This document shows positions 38,974-45,951 of a stretch of DNA of 64,000 nt, piece after piece. Both the position numbers and the translations under genes were made by a program. Each line of letters begins with the position of its first letter. Position 1 is the stretch's first letter. The notes below the pieces were generated by a model. That model made no database searches. It was not told the DNA's origin and saw only the letters and a program-made list of their open reading frames with translations. Origin of the DNA: Escherichia phage 241; sequence record OR924452. One strand, given 5' to 3'.

Positions 38974-39381
38974 TTAATCCACCAGGCGTTCGTAAATTTT
39001 TTGACGGAACTCATTCCCTTTTGCACAACCTGTGGCCAGCAAACGAGTACCGCCTGTCCCGATGACACTGATCGTTGAAAATCTTAAAATACGGCCTGTG
39101 ATGGACTGATCCACTTTGATGGTCTCAACTTTACCCAGGCGAAGTTCATCAGCATCACGGTGGATAAACCCTCGTTTTACGATAACCCGTTTGTTGGTGA
39201 CTGCGAATTCTGTGGTCATCACATTCAAGATAGTTGGGATCAGGAATAACAAACTGAAACCAAATGTTGGAATAATCGTTAAAGCGACGAGAACATAAAT
39301 CCAGAATCCACTCCACCAAGTCGGACGAGTGAATGCAACCACATATTCATTTTCGCTCAGCATACGGTCGACGTAACGCAT
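38974..39381 (-). CDS. membrane protein with bacterial PH-like (YdbS/YdbT-type) domain
   Basis: Two N-terminal TM helices then a segment resembling the bPH_2 family. Confidence 0.35.
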   Translation of the reverse strand: MRYVDRMLSENEYVVAFTRPTWWSGFWIYVLVALTIIPTFGFSLLFLIPTILNVMTTEFAVTNKRVIVKRGFIHRDADELRLGKVETIKVDQSITGRILRFSTISVIGTGGTRLLATGCAKGNEFRQKIYERLVD

Positions 39382-39382
39382 T

Positions 39383-39904
39383 TTAATTCCTTACTTTGTC
39401 AGGATTAGATAAGATTTGTTCGTATCCGACTTCTCCTTGATAGTCGAAAACATGCTGAAGAATCGCCATATCGTCTACCATCCGATAAACTTCAATTCCA
39501 GCGTTCATCAATTTTTTGATTCCATCCATAATACGATATGGCTCACGATAATATACTTTATCGATTTTACCGCTATCTATTATCTTTTGAGTGCAATTAG
39601 GGCAAGGACTATGTGTCACAAACATAACCAACCCTGTGAAATCATCTACATTTTCGGGGATACGCATTAGAGCATTTTCCTCCGCATGAACGACACACGG
39701 GTTTGTAACAATTTGCCCGTGTTGTTCCATCTCACAAACATTCGGCATGCCAGGAGGCGTTCCGTTCCATCCTATAGCCACAGGCTGATCAGTTTCAGGG
39801 TTTACAATAACACAACCGACTTGCAGACGCCGAGCATAACTGGTTACACCATATGCTGCAGCTGATCGCATATGAGCAAACATCATACGTGGTTTGATAG
39901 CCAT
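39383..39904 (-). CDS. cd: dCMP deaminase
   Basis: Zinc-binding motifs HAEENAL and PCPNC. Confidence 0.85.
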   Translation of the reverse strand: MAIKPRMMFAHMRSAAAYGVTSYARRLQVGCVIVNPETDQPVAIGWNGTPPGMPNVCEMEQHGQIVTNPCVVHAEENALMRIPENVDDFTGLVMFVTHSPCPNCTQKIIDSGKIDKVYYREPYRIMDGIKKLMNAGIEVYRMVDDMAILQHVFDYQGEVGYEQILSNPDKVRN

Positions 39905-40308
39905 TATTCACCTCTCAGAAGACGAGCGAAGCGTTCAACAATGCGATTGCGCGGCTTCTCGGGAACGATGTCTTCTACCGTAATGGTCAGTGTGTAGTTT
40001 GTAGAAAAATCGCAATCGGACTTTGTGATGATTTTCCGTTCACCAGGCAGCGGATACATCGTTAAAGCCCTATCGACGGAATCTAGAGAAGAACCGACCA
40101 AGTCCACCACCCTTTGGTGCCCGAACGATAATGGACCCACGACATCCTTTTCAAAAATTTCAATCACGTCGGTGACTAACACACCCAATGCAAGTCTTAG
40201 TCCAAGGTTCTGATTTTTATCCCCTAGTGTGTACACAAACTGCCGACGCCACAACTCTTTCCGGTCTTCAGAACGGACGAGAGAATAATTCAAATGGTAT
40301 TGTTTCAT
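39904..40308 (-). CDS. hypothetical protein (134 aa)
   Basis: ORF. Confidence 0.45.
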   Translation of the reverse strand: MKQYHLNYSLVRSEDRKELWRRQFVYTLGDKNQNLGLRLALGVLVTDVIEIFEKDVVGPLSFGHQRVVDLVGSSLDSVDRALTMYPLPGERKIITKSDCDFSTNYTLTITVEDIVPEKPRNRIVERFARLLRGE

Positions 40309-40622
40309 TTCACCAACACCTTTTCCAGGAAGAAGATCATGTCATCCTGGTCGGCACGGCCAAAGATCTGACCGAGGGACACCATGGAATGAACCTCTTT
40401 GACAATCAGGTCTTTGCCTGTTGCACCGCTGTTGTCCAATTCGAGAATTGTAGACATGCGCTCAACCATATGAGGTGGATGATTGATATAACGTTGAAGA
40501 TACTTTTCACGCAACGCAATTTTTTCGATAAGATCTGACATTTCTGCATTCTCTTCTGAATACAGACGTTCTTTAGATTTCAGTTCTTCGAGGCGTTCGT
40601 ACATTTCTTTTAATGAAATCAT
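40305..40622 (-). CDS. hypothetical protein (105 aa)
   Basis: GGGAGAG RBS before ATG at 40622 (track start 40637 is TTG). Confidence 0.45.
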   Translation of the reverse strand: MISLKEMYERLEELKSKERLYSEENAEMSDLIEKIALREKYLQRYINHPPHMVERMSTILELDNSGATGKDLIVKEVHSMVSLGQIFGRADQDDMIFFLEKVLVK

Positions 40623-40650
40623 GTTTGTCTCTCCCAATAAATTAAGGGGA

Positions 40651-40675
40651 AGTATACCTTCCCCTTCTTCAATAA
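40651..40675 (-). promoter_or_regulatory. putative promoter (TTATTGAAG box, 10 nt spacer, TATACT) embedded in a terminator hairpin
   Basis: Minus strand TTATTGAAG-aaggggaagg-TATACT, 28 nt upstream of ATG 40622; hairpin GGGGAAGG-tatac-CTTCCCC. Confidence 0.45.
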
Positions 40676-40684
40676 AATAAATTA

Positions 40685-41035
40685 TTATTCAGTACAAGCT
40701 CGACCAAGTTCAGTCAGGCGGTAGAATGTTACTTCTGATTTCGGCCAATGCTTATACTCTTCAGAGTCATCATGAACCATAGTGAACGCAGGTTCGATCA
40801 GACCTTTAGATAATAATGATTGCCCTGAACGTGTATCCCACGGATCACCTTTTACAGAACGAAACCCACCAGCAATCGGAGGGGCATGGAATGTCCATAC
40901 TGTCTTGCCCTTTTCATTCGTCCAAGACTTCGGATTGAAATACCAATGACAAAGGCGTCGATCATCATGGGTTTCAAAATTCAGCATTCCCAGAAGGACA
41001 CAGAGTTGATGTCCTGTGATTCTTGGCTTTTTCAT
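40685..41035 (-). CDS. hypothetical protein (116 aa)
   Basis: ORF. Confidence 0.45.
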   Translation of the reverse strand: MKKPRITGHQLCVLLGMLNFETHDDRRLCHWYFNPKSWTNEKGKTVWTFHAPPIAGGFRSVKGDPWDTRSGQSLLSKGLIEPAFTMVHDDSEEYKHWPKSEVTFYRLTELGRACTE

Positions 41036-41364
41036 AAGATCCCCAAGTCAGTAAGGTAACGATAAGACAGGACTACAGATAGAAATCCAATTAACATCCA
41101 AGACGACAGGATAGGCTTGCAATTTAGCGTAGTCTTTCCATTGGGTATGTTGGGACTTCCAGTAATAACAACCGAATCCGTTTTAGCTCTCAACGTCATG
41201 ACAGAACCCATGAGAATGATTGGGCGCACATAATGTCCGTCGCGATTGCGCTTTACAATACATGGTGAAGAAAATCGCAGGAACGGATCACCGCTTTTAT
41301 AACCGAACAACTCGACCTTTTCTATTTCTTCGGGAACCTTTTGTCCAGGAAAGAATATTCTCAT
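41032..41364 (-). CDS. hypothetical protein (110 aa)
   Basis: ORF. Confidence 0.4.
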
Positions 41365-41921
41365 AATATGATTCCTAAATTTGTGTATAACAATTCAGCT
41401 AGAGTAACAGGTCGTTTGAATTGTTCCCAGCTGCAGTTCAGATATTCACGTTCTTCGCGGATCTTTTCGTGAAGATGTCCATGGATATTATACGCCCAAC
41501 GATCTAATTGATACGGAACGTGTGTAGTCAGAATCCGACCGACAGAAGTATCCCGCTCATACATGGCACCAAAGGATGTAATCCAGCCCTCCAGATACAA
41601 CCGCATTAACATTTTGAAACTGTCGTGGTTGCCCTGTGCCACCCTGATGATAAAGTTCGGACGCCATTCATCGGGAACGGGGCGGCGCTTGAACTCATCA
41701 ATGTTCCGCTTGGCTCCTTCGCGCATCAGGCGTATGAACCCCTCAGCGCCGATAAAGCAGATGTCCCCCGCCAGTTCAAGGACATCCCGAGATTTCAGCC
41801 CTTGGAATATGCTGTCTATAACCGCAGCATCATGGGATTCTTGAGTATCGAATCCACGAGGTTTAAAGACTTTTTTATGCCCGAGGTGAGTGTCACCAAG
41901 GTACTTGACAATTCCTGCCAT
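41361..41921 (-). CDS. calcineurin-like metallophosphoesterase
   Basis: GDTHLGH ... GNHD ... HGHLHE motifs. Confidence 0.6.
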
Positions 41922-42388
41922 CAGATTCTTTCCTTCTCGGAGATACGGTCATGTGCGTTCTTTAACATTGCGTCCGACCAGTTAGACCAATCGAATACAT
42001 TAATAGAACTCACACCGTTATACAAATCCAATATAGTGGGAGAGAGCTGAATATTTAGAGCGCAAGGATCATCACTTTCAACGACCTTCAACCAAAATAA
42101 TTTTTTGTCTAGTAATTCGCGGGAGATACGTCTATACTTGGTAGCAGCTTCTTCACACCACCTTTCTAAGATCATCATCAATTCCCTTTCGATCCCAAAC
42201 CGAAACTCTGGTGTATTGGGTAAGCCGTGATAAGCAGACTTGAATCGATATTCCGTGACTTCATTTAATCGTGATATTAAGGGAACGACGAAACACGTTT
42301 GGAACTCATATTTCCAAGCTCTTTCGAGAACACTAATAATCTCATCACGTTCACATTGACTTAATTTCATTATGGCCTCCTCATCCAT
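41921..42388 (-). CDS. hypothetical protein (155 aa)
   Basis: ORF. Confidence 0.45.
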
Positions 42389-42711
42389 TCTAATATTGGG
42401 ATGCTTACAAACCCTTTATGCCAGCGGTGAGGTTTATGGCCTCTGTTGTGCTCCAACAAACAAGTATCTGGAGGAACACTGAAATGGATACCATCGATAT
42501 CGTAATAATTCCCGTCGATAAGAGTGTACACATGCCCTTCAATCTGGCTGTAATGAATCTCCGCTTGCGGATAAACGTGTTTGAGAACCAGGGCGACTTG
42601 ATAGCACTTCCCGTTCTTTCCCACATACTCAACATCCACCTGTTGTGGGAAAATGTCCTTGATCAGATTTATCAATATGGTGATATCATTCACCACGACA
42701 GATGGTTTCAT
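42370..42711 (-). CDS. hypothetical protein (113 aa)
   Basis: ORF. Confidence 0.45.
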   Translation of the reverse strand: MKPSVVVNDITILINLIKDIFPQQVDVEYVGKNGKCYQVALVLKHVYPQAEIHYSQIEGHVYTLIDGNYYDIDGIHFSVPPDTCLLEHNRGHKPHRWHKGFVSIPILEWMRRP

Positions 42712-42724
42712 CTTCTCATCTCAC

Positions 42725-43387
42725 CTATGATAACTCATAGCGATGGCGGGTACATGCAGGGCAATTACAGTCTTTTCTCAAAATTGGCATTTCACACCAC
42801 GTCATCAAACCATGTATTGGAGACATGTGGTGATAAAACCATGATTTTTTGAGACTAATCAAAGGATATAAAATTTCAATTGGCCTTTCCCCGTCTCTTG
42901 TCATCATATTGTATCCTTCGATGACCTTATTGAAAGCTGGGATCCAGTGGATCGCGTCGTCCCCGTTGACATATGCCAATATGTATGTGGGAGGCAAACT
43001 CCGGCCTTTAAATTGTGTGTTTAATAACCATATCGGGGCTTGTGCTAAACACGCACGAAACCCGCCGTCCGGCACGTGAATGCTACTAATCGGTTCTTGG
43101 TGATGAGTCCAACGATGCATAAGAAGCGGAGCATTCTTGTTGATCCAATTATAAATTTTATTTCGCGCCCAATTCTCACGTTTGGATTTGAAATTATTAT
43201 TTTCAAGATGGCAATACACAGTATGAACCGAATAACCTTTCGATAATAACCAAACCAACATGTATGTGCTATCCACGCCGCCTGACCAAAACAATGTCAC
43301 TTCTTGATTATTTTCCGGCAAAGGTGCATCCCCTTGAAGGACACGGTACACAAATTCACAATCAGATACAGAGACAACGATTTCCAT
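42725..43387 (-). CDS. PP-loop ATP pyrophosphatase, QueC-like
   Basis: SGGVDST PP-loop near the N-terminus; C-terminal Cys cluster WCEMPILRKDCNCPACTRHR resembling the QueC zinc site; about 220 aa. Confidence 0.5.
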   Translation of the reverse strand: MEIVVSVSDCEFVYRVLQGDAPLPENNQEVTLFWSGGVDSTYMLVWLLSKGYSVHTVYCHLENNNFKSKRENWARNKIYNWINKNAPLLMHRWTHHQEPISSIHVPDGGFRACLAQAPIWLLNTQFKGRSLPPTYILAYVNGDDAIHWIPAFNKVIEGYNMMTRDGERPIEILYPLISLKKSWFYHHMSPIHGLMTWCEMPILRKDCNCPACTRHRYELS

Positions 43388-43710
43388 TAAATTATTCCCC
43401 TCAAAGAGTCATTGATTCTACGCAATTCGTTTTCCACCTTTATCTTCATATTTTTGTCGTCGTTCACGAAAATCATTTTATCTAAATCTTCGCCATTAAT
43501 CTTTGTATAAAAATAAATGTCATGCTCAAAGAAAATCGTTTTTCCAACAGAACGCATGGCAAAGAATGTCGCAATAGTTCTCGATAATGGCTTGAACTTA
43601 ATAGCATTAAAACGCAAAGCCTGATATAGGGGTTTTAATGTTCCCAGTCTGATACAGTGCTGAATGATTTCTTGTTCTTTCATCCCATTGTCCGAGTGAC
43701 GGGGTTTCAT
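43387..43710 (-). CDS. hypothetical protein (107 aa)
   Basis: ORF. Confidence 0.4.
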   Translation of the reverse strand: MKPRHSDNGMKEQEIIQHCIRLGTLKPLYQALRFNAIKFKPLSRTIATFFAMRSVGKTIFFEHDIYFYTKINGEDLDKMIFVNDDKNMKIKVENELRRINDSLRGII

Positions 43711-43781
43711 CGGAAACCCCCTATGTTTGTTGGTTAAACAATGATACTTTAGTCAAGATATAGAAAAGCCCCTTTCGGGGC

Positions 43782-44072
43782 TTATTCTTCATCAGATTTG
43801 AAAAGGTTCCATCGGCCTATTCCATACCATTCTCCAATATTGTTGGAGTAGCGGGTTGTCCTAACTCCACCGATTTCGTACCCCCATTTGAAGAAACTCC
43901 ATCTTTCCTTTAGGGTGGGTGGTTTATTTCCGGTTGCCAAGGAGCAAGCTGTAAGCCAACGTGCGATACTAATGGCTTGAAAAATTGGATGAATAAACGA
44001 ATAATACACAACACTCAGAGTTATAATGACGAAGACGCATGTTGTAATCACCCCGACAATTTCAAAGAACAT
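43782..44072 (-). CDS. small membrane protein (96 aa)
   Basis: GGGGG RBS; hydrophobic helices. Confidence 0.4.
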   Translation of the reverse strand: MFFEIVGVITTCVFVIITLSVVYYSFIHPIFQAISIARWLTACSLATGNKPPTLKERWSFFKWGYEIGGVRTTRYSNNIGEWYGIGRWNLFKSDEE

Positions 44073-44779: not shown

Positions 44780-45116
44780 CGGTTTCCCCCGCTTTCTCTA
44801 AAAGAAGTTTCAAAGGATATGTCCCACAAGCGGTGGCATATTCAACTCTGAAATATGAATTATCGTTCATGGCGAAATTGCGATGAGGAAAATATTCACC
44901 ATCATCAAAACCACCCATCCCTCCACCGACGCGATATTGTTTCAATTCTACTTCGCCACCGTAACGCAGTTGGGCGTAGAGACCGATAGGAGCGCGAACA
45001 TAATGCTCCAGCCACACCCAATTACCGTCATGTAGACGAGTGGGCAAAAATGCAAACCGTACCTTGGGATGAAGAACGGCTTTAGCCAACATTTCTTCCG
45101 TCACTTCAGATTTCAT
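44772..45116 (-). CDS. hypothetical protein (114 aa)
   Basis: ORF. Confidence 0.4.
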   Translation of the reverse strand: MKSEVTEEMLAKAVLHPKVRFAFLPTRLHDGNWVWLEHYVRAPIGLYAQLRYGGEVELKQYRVGGGMGGFDDGEYFPHRNFAMNDNSYFRVEYATACGTYPLKLLLEKAGETDV

Positions 45117-45718
45117 CCGATGCTTTCCTCTTCGATGACGTCTTCTTCATTAGGAACAACAGAGATCCCAAAGTCGATCATTTGAGAGAGTTCTTGTAAA
45201 TCCTTTTCGAATCCATCCCCTTCCCGAATATAGAATACTGGGACCACGCGGCGGCGAGTATCTTCAAAGATGGTTTCGGCGATTTTGTTAATCTGGCCTA
45301 CCACATGTGTGAGATTCAAGCCACCAATACCACAACCGATGGCGGGCAAACCGACATAGACAGTTTCATCAGCTTTGGCTTCAACGATATCATGAATTTG
45401 TTCAAACATGATCTGGACTGAGCTAATGATAGATGGCATGCGAGCATTGGGACCTGGGTAAAATTGAGTATACAAATTGAATCCCCAGACACCAGTGTCA
45501 TGATCAAACGCATAGGACATGTTCCCCAAGCGCTGTTCCGGACCACGTTCATCTAATTGGTCGGCGCGGTAAATCTCTGGGAAATTCAATCGAACGTGAT
45601 TGGCGATACCCGCGCCCATTACAGACCAACAATTTGCGCCGTGAGCAAAGGCATTGATAAGATTGAAACTCGTGGCGGCTTTTAATAAATCGCCATTTGT
45701 GATAATATAAGTGGTCAT
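45113..45718 (-). CDS. macro-domain protein (ADP-ribose binding/processing)
   Basis: ITNGDLL...INAFAHGANCWSVMGAGIANH typical of macro domains; start set at ATG 45718 (ATGA coupling). Confidence 0.6.
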   Translation of the reverse strand: MTTYIITNGDLLKAATSFNLINAFAHGANCWSVMGAGIANHVRLNFPEIYRADQLDERGPEQRLGNMSYAFDHDTGVWGFNLYTQFYPGPNARMPSIISSVQIMFEQIHDIVEAKADETVYVGLPAIGCGIGGLNLTHVVGQINKIAETIFEDTRRRVVPVFYIREGDGFEKDLQELSQMIDFGISVVPNEEDVIEEESIG

Positions 45719-45951
45719 GCGTAACGTCTCCATTGTATAATTTCGTTGTCGACACAACTGACCTGAATGATACACATATTCTGGCGATGGTCGGTGAGTG
45801 TAATAATAAAACTGTCTGGTTGTGACATGACACGATTAACAGATATCCCGCGCGACATCAAACGAAAGCAAATTTCTTGATACAAACGTTGCATATATCC
45901 TGAAACAGAAGCCGATTCATATGCGCGTTCAAATTCGTATAATTCGTTCAT
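45715..45951 (-). CDS. hypothetical protein (78 aa)
   Basis: ORF. Confidence 0.4.
   Translation of the reverse strand: MNELYEFERAYESASVSGYMQRLYQEICFRLMSRGISVNRVMSQPDSFIITLTDHRQNMCIIQVSCVDNEIIQWRRYA

Follow-up and report, generated by a model that had tools for sequence, protein, structure and literature searches.

Positions 39904–43710 of Escherichia phage 241 (sequence record OR924452; the whole 64,000 nucleotides analysed are referred to as the window) comprise nine tightly packed minus-strand genes: seven small open reading frames (ORFs), orfA to orfG, a small metallophosphoesterase (MPE) and a QueC-like PP-loop ATPase. We propose, with a probability of roughly 0.6, that this block is a mosaic section of the long leftward early/DNA-metabolism gene array of Kuttervirus and not one functional cassette. 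Two kinds of gene would make up the section. The first would consist of enzymes conserved over much of the Ackermannviridae: the dCMP deaminase that flanks the block, the MPE and the QueC-like ATPase. The second would consist of small genes inserted at gene boundaries with overlaps of 1–4 nt, some of them seemingly lineage-restricted (orfB, orfC, orfD and orfF) and others present in one phage and absent from a near-identical one (orfA, orfE and orfG, with a HAD phosphatase gene as an additional case in other strains).

Gene content and mosaicism of the block

The stretch derives from a Kuttervirus (Vi01-like, Ackermannviridae) and not from a T4 relative. A megablast search with positions 39383–43710, that is, the block and the flanking deaminase gene, retrieved 192 phage records, nearly all from Salmonella and Escherichia Vi01-like phages, with top identities of 99.3–99.7%; the RefSeq taxonomy of Vi01, given for the matching region, is Ackermannviridae, Cvivirinae, Kuttervirus. 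Gene by gene, the block corresponds to Vi01_022 to Vi01_030 (proteins YP_004327393 to YP_004327401), which in Vi01 have the dexA exonuclease/topoisomerase II region and baseplate genes as neighbors. No block ORF matched a T4 core family in Pfam, PHROG or NCBIfam scans. Given the Ackermannviridae taxonomy, a T4 framing is wrong, and the block is not the set of T4-superfamily core genes that an earlier sequence-only reading of this DNA had named as the finding that would speak against it. The block resembles the plastic early regions of large virulent phages, T4 among them, in its co-directional small ORFs, start/stop overlaps, presence/absence polymorphism and admixture of nucleotide-metabolism enzymes; it differs in belonging to another phage family and in containing no T4 orthologue of known role, except for the generic dCMP deaminase and the nearby dexA. 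In one respect the block is routine: its genes have already been sequenced, and annotated as hypothetical, in approximately 200 Vi01-like phages, many of which are proposed for biocontrol or therapy.

The gene junctions are mostly start/stop overlaps of 1–4 nt. The sequence-only reading had placed eight co-directional small ORFs and a phosphoesterase between the dCMP deaminase and the QueC-like gene; the genes are indeed co-directional, but only six small ORFs and the MPE lie there, the seventh small ORF, orfG, lying beyond the QueC-like gene. Differences from orthologues fall largely at third codon positions (positions 1/2/3: 15/0/101 for orfG, 48/33/462 for orfF and 69/30/277 for orfC), and this substitution pattern indicates that the ORFs are real genes. 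Synonymous changes outnumber non-synonymous changes in every ORF for which several orthologue comparisons were available (98 to 7 in orfG, 410 to 84 in orfF, 258 to 67 in orfC and 649 to 155 in the QueC-like gene), which indicates purifying selection, strong in the case of orfG. Every ORF of the block has a PHROG match, those of the small ORFs being PHROGs of unknown function.

Among approximately 200 near relatives, some phages have and others lack orfA, orfE or orfG, and each of these genes occurs as divergent alleles at one slot. orfA (39904–40308, minus strand, 134 aa, phrog_13393) is absent from Vi01 and was found in 59 phage records as three alleles (100%, ~42% and ~37% identity). orfE (41921–42388, minus strand, 149–155 aa), a variable accessory gene like orfA and orfG, matches phrog_17979 over residues 7–155 and was found in 36 phage records, also as three alleles (~100%, 61% and 38%), always with the MPE gene on one side and either orfF or the QueC-like gene on the other. 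orfG (43387–43710, minus strand, 98–107 aa) was found in 100 phage records, all from Kuttervirus and amounting to about half of the genus; its family, phrog_9302, covers residues 10–107. No record among 50,697 phage genomes contains the full gene set of 39383–43710. The best coverage is only 91%, because records that carry the orfE of the window lack its orfA, and vice versa.

The enzymes show a different distribution. The deaminase, QueC-like and dexA genes are shared by five genera, namely Kuttervirus, the lineage of locus L011 (L numbers denote the phage loci compared), Taipeivirus (L013–15), Miltonvirus (L016 and L042) and Nezavisimistyvirus (phiEa2809), and the MPE occurs in the first four of these. 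In Taipeivirus and Miltonvirus the MPE gene directly adjoins the QueC-like gene, in opposite order; in Miltonvirus L042 the MPE gene, the QueC-like gene, one small ORF and the deaminase gene are contiguous, with 4-nt overlaps.

A contrasting arrangement was found in Limestonevirus. Dickeya phage RC-2014 has kept the deaminase, orfB, orfC and a gene for a bacterial PH-domain (bPH) protein, and is without dexA, the QueC-like gene, orfF and orfD. The stretch from the QueC-like gene to the MPE gene is deleted but for 22 residues from the 3' end of the MPE gene, which survive at 100% identity (L081:6001–6826). None of the 201 phage records that contain the QueC-like gene is from a Dickeya phage.

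These patterns bear on the proposal, made in the sequence-only reading, that the block is an accessory anti-defence or host-takeover cassette. In such a cassette the MPE would destroy nucleotide immune signals, the QueC-like protein would hinder the defence enzymes Cap9/QatC or the deazaguanine that they use, and the products of the small ORFs would act against host defence or host proteins. The patchy occurrence of orfA, orfE and orfG and the turnover of their alleles agree with this proposal, as do the dispensability of the QueC-like-to-MPE stretch in Limestonevirus and the exchange of orfF between unrelated phage families. Against it, none of the block proteins matched a defence or anti-defence family apart from a generic hit to the PP-loop of the QueC-like protein, described below; the small ORFs had no match in PADLOC, NCBIfam or the Pfam families of known function. 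Literature support was likewise not found, a search having returned no Kuttervirus transcriptome or anti-defence paper. The accessory character of the variable genes, of the shared orfF and of the stretch deleted in Limestonevirus is therefore upheld, the anti-defence signature and the discrete cassette are not, and we regard the cassette as a whole as unlikely. The variable ORFs may have an anti-defence role, and orfA, orfE, orfG and the Cys-His-Asp protein orfF are reasonable candidates for screening for host-takeover or counter-defence activity.

A further mosaic element was observed in other strains. A 123-aa HAD-type phosphatase (motif DFDGT; phrog_1238, labeled 'phosphoheptose isomerase') is encoded at the orfD/orfC junction in some kutterviruses and in Taipeivirus (L007:8893–9264 and L013:8683–9054), and, in an unrelated phage contig, immediately ahead of the QueC-like gene (L022:6629–7000); it is absent from the window. 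The copy in RC-2014 is 97.6% identical to that of a Kuttervirus while the flanking genes are only 65–71% identical, which suggests a recent exchange between genera.

The QueC-like PP-loop protein and its genomic context

The QueC-like gene (42725–43387, minus strand) encodes a protein of 220 aa, one peptide of which was picked up in a proteomic study of a Vi01-like phage preparation. The earlier assignment to the QueC-like proteins is borne out by a match to phrog_1550 (E=5e-78), by a full-length alignment of the family profile to Bacillus subtilis QueC (3BL5; E=8e-4) and by fold matches to Cap9 and QueC; the match to the Pfam QueC family (E=3.4e-5) covers the PP-loop only. With QueC (7-cyano-7-deazaguanine synthase; PF06508 cluster 1) the protein shares its fold, its size, the SGGxDS loop and a C-terminal four-cysteine site. 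The PP-loop reads WSGGVDST without variation in 21 close and 50 distant homologues, and the SGGVDS loop, a DDA motif and C198/C207/C209/C212 are invariant across 50 diverse family members. Close homologues are few, all on Ackermannviridae-like contigs, and keep WSGGxDST, NN..K..RE, R111, Q116, YVNGDDA, KK, E199 and the four cysteines.

The canonical motifs of QueC are SGGxDS, YxQxHxxE, VPxRN, YPDC and the zinc motif C(x)8CxxCxxC (PMC13329287). Only SGGxDS is retained in the QueC-like protein. At the positions of YxQxHxxE, VPxRN and YPDC in the profile alignment with 3BL5, it has NNxxKxxRE (L-x-N-N-x-x-K-x-x-R-E), LAQAP and NGDDA..WIP (W-I-P-A), respectively, so that the three substrate motifs are substituted. 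The cysteine motif is a variant, with the spacing C-x8-C-x-C-x2-C in kutterviruses; in the wider family the gap after the first cysteine varies and the consensus is TWCE...CGxCxxC. Replacement of the substrate motifs, together with the variant cysteine motif, argues at the level of sequence that the protein is not a preQ0 synthase. Genes for FolE, QueD, QueE and DpdA/TGT were found neither among the block and flanking genes nor in 79 related loci, and with substrate motifs and partner genes both absent, we discarded a preQ0/7-deazaguanine pathway. The widespread label 'QueC-like queuosine biosynthesis', which the PHROG annotation carries as 'queuosine biosynthesis', is misleading for the same reasons. 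Consistent with this separation, Hutinet et al. 2019 (PMC6884629) placed the identical protein of phage ECML-4 as a singleton of another subfamily.

The best match of the structural model (pLDDT 84) among solved structures was Cap9 of type IV CBASS (9NTO_B; E=3.4e-5, TM 0.60/0.71), followed by QueC 3BL5 (TM 0.52/0.56) and then by other PP-loop enzymes, including TtuA, NcsA, ThiI and TilS. That the nearest solved fold belongs to a defence protein of similarly compact size could be taken to favor the anti-defence cassette. The two proteins share just 16% sequence identity, however, and differ in setting: Cap9 and QatC (of QatABCD) are QueC-family defence enzymes that deazaguanylate proteins, whereas the QueC-like gene is a phage gene whose family lies in replication and nucleotide modules and not among fast-turnover genes. 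No CD-NTase, Cap10, QatA, QatB or QatD is encoded near the QueC-like gene, the neighbors of which are phage early genes, and PADLOC returned only its generic QueC model (25 bits, residues 26–81). Moreover, the QueC-like protein is without the canonical substrate motifs that Cap9 reportedly keeps, which makes the use of 7-carboxy-7-deazaguanine unlikely. We suggest instead that the protein may use ATP to adenylate some other substrate (a nucleobase, a nucleotide or a nucleic acid) at a carboxyl or carbonyl group, followed by transfer to a nucleophile.

An exhaustive profile search with the QueC-like family returned representatives of 1421 clusters (50% identity); 636 of these had E<1e-10, so that the family comprises at least 636 clusters. 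Members of these 636 clusters are proteins of ~200 aa with full-length matches, and all 50 of the 50 sampled belong to phrog_1550. No relatives turned up when 185,579 genomes, each representing a bacterial or archaeal species, were scanned twice with short motif patterns, and the family is apparently virus-only.

Genomic context was compared across 79 IMG/VR loci by means of tblastn, clustering and iterated hidden Markov model (HMM) searches; of these loci, 63 were from outside the Ackermannviridae and formed 45 groups at 70% identity. In these 45 groups, 34 ORFs encoding SNF2 helicases were counted no more than 3 kb away from the QueC-like gene (split genes possibly being counted twice), a family B DNA polymerase (PolB) is encoded nearby in 24 groups, typically immediately downstream, and a conserved ORF of ~120 aa lies just upstream in 19. 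The usual order in the PolB lineages is SNF2 helicase, ~120-aa ORF, QueC-like gene and PolB (for example, L068:6642–11650 and L026:757–7430). The SNF2 and PolB identities were confirmed with Pfam; the PolB has no close cultured relative, the best being from Salinibacter phages at 28% identity. Other neighbors include RecA, a 5'-3' exonuclease, NUDIX, Macro and ParB_N proteins and a DNA methylase, and enzymes acting on nucleotides: an NT5C deoxynucleotidase (L024/L063), a nucleoside deoxyribosyltransferase-like protein (Nuc_deoxyri_tr2) together with a dCMP deaminase (L058), and a HAD phosphatase (L022).

This set of neighbors speaks for a function in nucleotide or DNA metabolism. Possibly, the family is a large virus-only branch of the QueC/PP-loop proteins that carries out a novel ATP-dependent transformation of a nucleobase or nucleotide, tied to phage DNA replication and assisted by the MPE in the Ackermannviridae; we offer this tentatively and consider it improbable as it stands. 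If true, it would mean new nucleotide-pool or DNA-modification chemistry in phages. Large, apparently confined to viruses and located in replication and nucleotide modules, the family is a tractable candidate for new phage nucleotide chemistry.

A variant of this idea places the chemistry on nucleic acid. The QueC-like protein would then modify DNA or RNA at the replisome, in the manner of the tRNA-modifying enzymes TilS, ThiI and TtuA, and the MPE would trim ends in the manner of PdeM and Mre11-type nucleases. Speaking for this are the placement of the QueC-like gene next to the SNF2 helicase and, in 24 of 45 lineages, ahead of a PolB gene that typically follows it directly, the presence of TtuA, NcsA, ThiI and TilS among the fold matches and the fact that the best NCBIfam match of the MPE is the DNA-damage endonuclease PdeM (E=2e-4). 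The QueC-like protein, however, is a bare 220-aa catalytic domain with no recognizable nucleic-acid-binding module, the window has no tRNA genes, and the PdeM similarity (20.8 bits) falls far under the family cut-off of 150 bits. We give this variant very little credence.

The metallophosphoesterase, the dCMP deaminase and nucleotide metabolism

The MPE gene (41361–41921, minus strand) encodes a protein of 186 aa that matches phrog_547, annotated 'phosphoesterase', at E=1.4e-42. It carries the calcineurin-like superfamily motif set DxH, GD, GNH[DE], H and GHxH as GD10xH12, GD53 (G52-D53), GN98H99D (G97-N98-H99-D100), H134 and GH149xH151, and all five motifs are conserved without exception in 13 homologues, the most distant at 52% identity. 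These data sustain the earlier identification of a calcineurin-like phosphoesterase, and the protein is predicted from its motifs to be an active enzyme. The Pfam Metallophos model gave no match even with the threshold relaxed to E≤1; a match to the NCBIfam family PdeM was weak, as noted above, as was one to Aquifex aq_1665 (1XM7). Full-length homologues at 25–29% identity occur in T5 (T5p033) and many other virulent phages, in 697 phage records overall.

Phage MPEs of this kind are widely labeled 'serine/threonine phosphatase'. The signature of the PPP Ser/Thr phosphatases is GDxHG, GDxVDRG and GNHE. In the MPE the corresponding segments read GDTHLGH, GDICF and GNHD, with no DRG element; lacking GDxVDRG and GNHE, the protein was rejected as a lambda-type (PPP) Ser/Thr protein phosphatase, and the common annotation is unsupported and misleading. 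Nor does the fold resemble that of the phage enzymes known to degrade immune signals, as the anti-defence cassette would have it: Acb1 has a 2H fold and Apyc1 a metallo-beta-lactamase fold, and the MPE has neither the two HxT/S motifs of the former nor the HxHxDH motif of the latter, its own catalytic motifs standing in their place. We propose that the MPE may hydrolyze a phosphate ester on a nucleotide or on a nucleic-acid end.

The closest points of comparison are T5p033 and aq_1665, both uncharacterised proteins that, like the MPE, are of ~155–195 aa and contain all MPE motifs. T5p033 aligns with the MPE over its full length at 25.7% identity, and both are encoded in early regions; the T5 record note for T5p033 cites COG4186. 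The Ackermannviridae clade differs from both proteins in an insert (approximately residues 55–95) and a conserved C-terminal NSSWEQ motif. In phage T5 (L082:3132–4516), the early-region gene T5p033 comes directly after T5p034, a gene of its own for a lambda-type Ser/Thr phosphatase, and this side-by-side placement indicates that the two types of phosphoesterase are distinct and coexist.

The dCMP deaminase gene (39383–39904, minus strand, 173 aa) flanks the block, as the sequence-only reading had recognized, and matches PF00383 (E=2e-17) and phrog_174 (E=4.5e-64). In five Ackermannviridae genera, and in the unrelated loci L058 and L025 as well, it has the QueC-like gene as a direct or close neighbor. 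The deaminase probably supplies dUMP for the phage 5-hmdU/5-NeOmdU pathway, and dUMP would enter the modification pathway by this route. The 5-NeOmdU gene set of phage ViI comprises kinases, a dUMP hydroxymethylase, a PLP decarboxylase and an aGPT-Pplase, and gp67, gp160, gp226, gp243 and gp247 sufficed to reconstitute the hypermodification in vitro. The accessions of these proteins (YP_004327432, YP_004327553, YP_004327565 and YP_004327568, none being listed for gp160) all fall outside the block. As the modification was reconstituted from five proteins encoded elsewhere, the block is no part of the hypermodification pathway, and its membership in a 5-NeOmdU cluster was rejected.

Another reading is a dedicated pathway of nucleotide modification or pool editing, in which a pyrimidine deoxynucleotide would be handled in turn by the deaminase, by the QueC-like ATPase and by a phosphatase, which could be the MPE or a HAD or NT5C enzyme of the kind seen in other phages. 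The outcome could be that a non-canonical nucleotide is made or removed, for example by ATP-dependent base amidation or thiolation, or that dTMP/dTTP is removed in favor of 5-hmdUTP. Classical hmU phages encode enzymes that remove dTMP or dTTP. The QueC-like gene is recurrently linked with dCMP deaminase (in the Ackermannviridae, L058 and L025) and with phosphatases of three folds, namely the MPE, the HAD protein c45 (L022 and some kutterviruses) and NT5C (L024/L063), and L058 adds the nucleoside deoxyribosyltransferase-like gene. Opposed to this, most loci have replication proteins and not pool enzymes as neighbors of the QueC-like gene, the MPE and the QueC-like protein occur separately in many phages, and the hypermodification was reconstituted without any block gene. 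Furthermore, nucleoside analyses of ViI and of Taipeivirus phiHS2 report 5-NeOmdU as the sole modification. We consider a dedicated pathway of this kind distinctly unlikely.

Several points weigh against the proposal of a mosaic section of a DNA-metabolism array with conserved enzymes. The evidence from neighbors in uncultured phages is of the guilt-by-association kind, and a single large lineage may account for many of the loci. The QueC-like gene occurs without a nearby MPE gene in phiEa2809 and in a Vibrio Ackermannviridae phage, and the MPE occurs without the QueC-like gene in T5-like phages; an obligate pairing of the two was rejected on this independence. The deletion in Limestonevirus shows that at least one lineage can do without these enzymes, which agrees equally well with pool tuning and with an accessory or counter-defence role. 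Finally, while gene content, motifs, fold class, phyletic pattern and genomic context were read directly from the data, it is from these that we infer the substrates and biological roles of all block genes.

Small ORFs, hairpins and flanking genes

Profile searches of each ORF, which the sequence-only reading had called for, placed the MPE and the QueC-like protein in known superfamilies and returned nothing of known function for the small ORFs. Profile and sequence searches of the PDB with orfA to orfG gave nothing below E=0.4, and for orfA, orfB, orfC, orfE and orfG, Pfam, NCBIfam and PADLOC yielded nothing beyond their PHROGs of unknown function. The earlier description of the small ORFs as devoid of recognizable motifs thus applies to these five, leaving aside their PHROG matches, and fails for orfD and orfF.

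orfF (42370–42711, minus strand, 113 aa) belongs to the Pfam family Phage_YunG-like and was found in 228 phage records, including rV5-like phages (66–74% identity) and Vibrio and Pseudomonas phages. Residues C36, H60 and D71, a potential Cys-His-Asp triad, are invariant in 11 homologues. The structural model contains a helix at residues 34–46 and strands at 51–55, 60–65, 68–71 and 74–76, so that the cysteine lies at a helix N-terminus and the histidine and aspartate lie on the packed beta-sheet, the triad layout of transglutaminase/papain-like enzymes. The fold match to this class is weak, and a Foldseek search of the model against the PDB gave nothing significant. The group used for comparison comprised the transglutaminase/papain-like cysteine enzymes LapG (4FGO), OspI, protein-glutaminase and NlpC/P60. 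We regard orfF as a candidate minimal Cys-His-Asp (transglutaminase/papain-like) enzyme, which could act as a small cysteine-dependent peptidase, deamidase or acyltransferase. A further point on the side of the anti-defence cassette is the likeness of this candidate Cys-His-Asp fold to that of bacterial effectors with deamidase or protease activity (OspI, SseI and TecA, for example).

orfD (41032–41364, minus strand, 110 aa, phrog_6872) matches PF24594 (DUF7618) at E=5e-55 and is confined to Kuttervirus and Agtrevirus-like phages, in 188 phage records; its hydrophobic C-terminal segment, read from the sequence, is a probable membrane anchor. orfC (40685–41035, minus strand, 116 aa, phrog_4677) has 46 invariant columns over three genera and is also present in Limestonevirus at 71% identity. 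orfB (40305–40622, minus strand, 105 aa, phrog_4059), predicted to be helical, corresponds to Vi01_029 and is kept in Kuttervirus, the L011 lineage, Taipeivirus and Limestonevirus (46–96% identity). In an all-versus-all hhalign comparison of the small ORF families that flank QueC-like genes elsewhere, the sole signal was a weak resemblance (probability 68%) of orfA to ORF c145, which lies beside the QueC-like gene in the phiMAM1-like locus L016. An unannotated ORF of ~160 aa in phiEa2809 (L083:5085–5573), situated between its QueC-like gene and the neighboring annotated gene, is likewise weakly orfA-like (HMM E=8e-4).

Three ORFs probably start later than mechanical ORF calling would place them: orfB at the ATG at 40622 (105 aa), just 5' of which lies GGGAGAG, orfE at 42370 (149 aa) and orfG at 43683 (98 aa). 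For orfG, homologues keep only residues 10–107, and thus M10 (43683) may be the true start. The first ATG of orfG (43710) is surrounded by a hairpin, GGGGTTTC-CGAT-GAAACCCC (43701–43720, minus strand), that directly follows a strong Shine-Dalgarno-like sequence, AGGGGG. As an alternative to the M10 start, this hairpin may regulate the translation of orfG.

Two further hairpins are conserved, one bounding the block and one splitting it. The first, a GC-rich hairpin, AAGCCCCGAAAGGGGCTT, followed by a T-run (43766–43783, minus strand), lies at the upstream edge of the block and is terminator-like on both strands; its core is exact, and at the same position, in 10 Kuttervirus loci whether or not orfG is next to it, and it is a candidate terminator. 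The second, likewise GC-rich, AAGGGGAAG-N5-CTTCCCCTT (40644–40666, minus strand), was matched in a terminator-like scan in the gap between orfC and orfB. Its stem is an exact copy, at the same position, in 10 Kuttervirus loci, and it is a candidate terminator, attenuator or RNA-stability element. Sigma-70-like sites were in no excess over shuffled sequence (19 versus 18.9), and the T4 late-promoter motif TATAAATA was not enriched. The same-strand gene array extends from ~38755 to ~63900, well beyond the block. Because of the internal and edge hairpins, and because the array runs on, the single transcription unit of the sequence-only reading is not borne out, and the block as a discrete unit is not demonstrated.

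Two genes outside the block complete the picture of this region. A 220-aa protein encoded at 45113–45775 (minus strand) is labeled in the literature as a putative ADP-ribose-binding protein. A macro domain was discarded, there being no Pfam Macro match at E≤0.01; the protein instead matches phrog_335, annotated 'phosphatase', at E=1e-73, and is conserved with dexA across Ackermannviridae genera. Directly downstream of the dCMP deaminase gene, positions 38974–39381 (minus strand) encode a membrane-flanked protein of the bPH_2 family, the bPH gene mentioned above, which is kept in every Ackermannviridae genus examined, Limestonevirus included.

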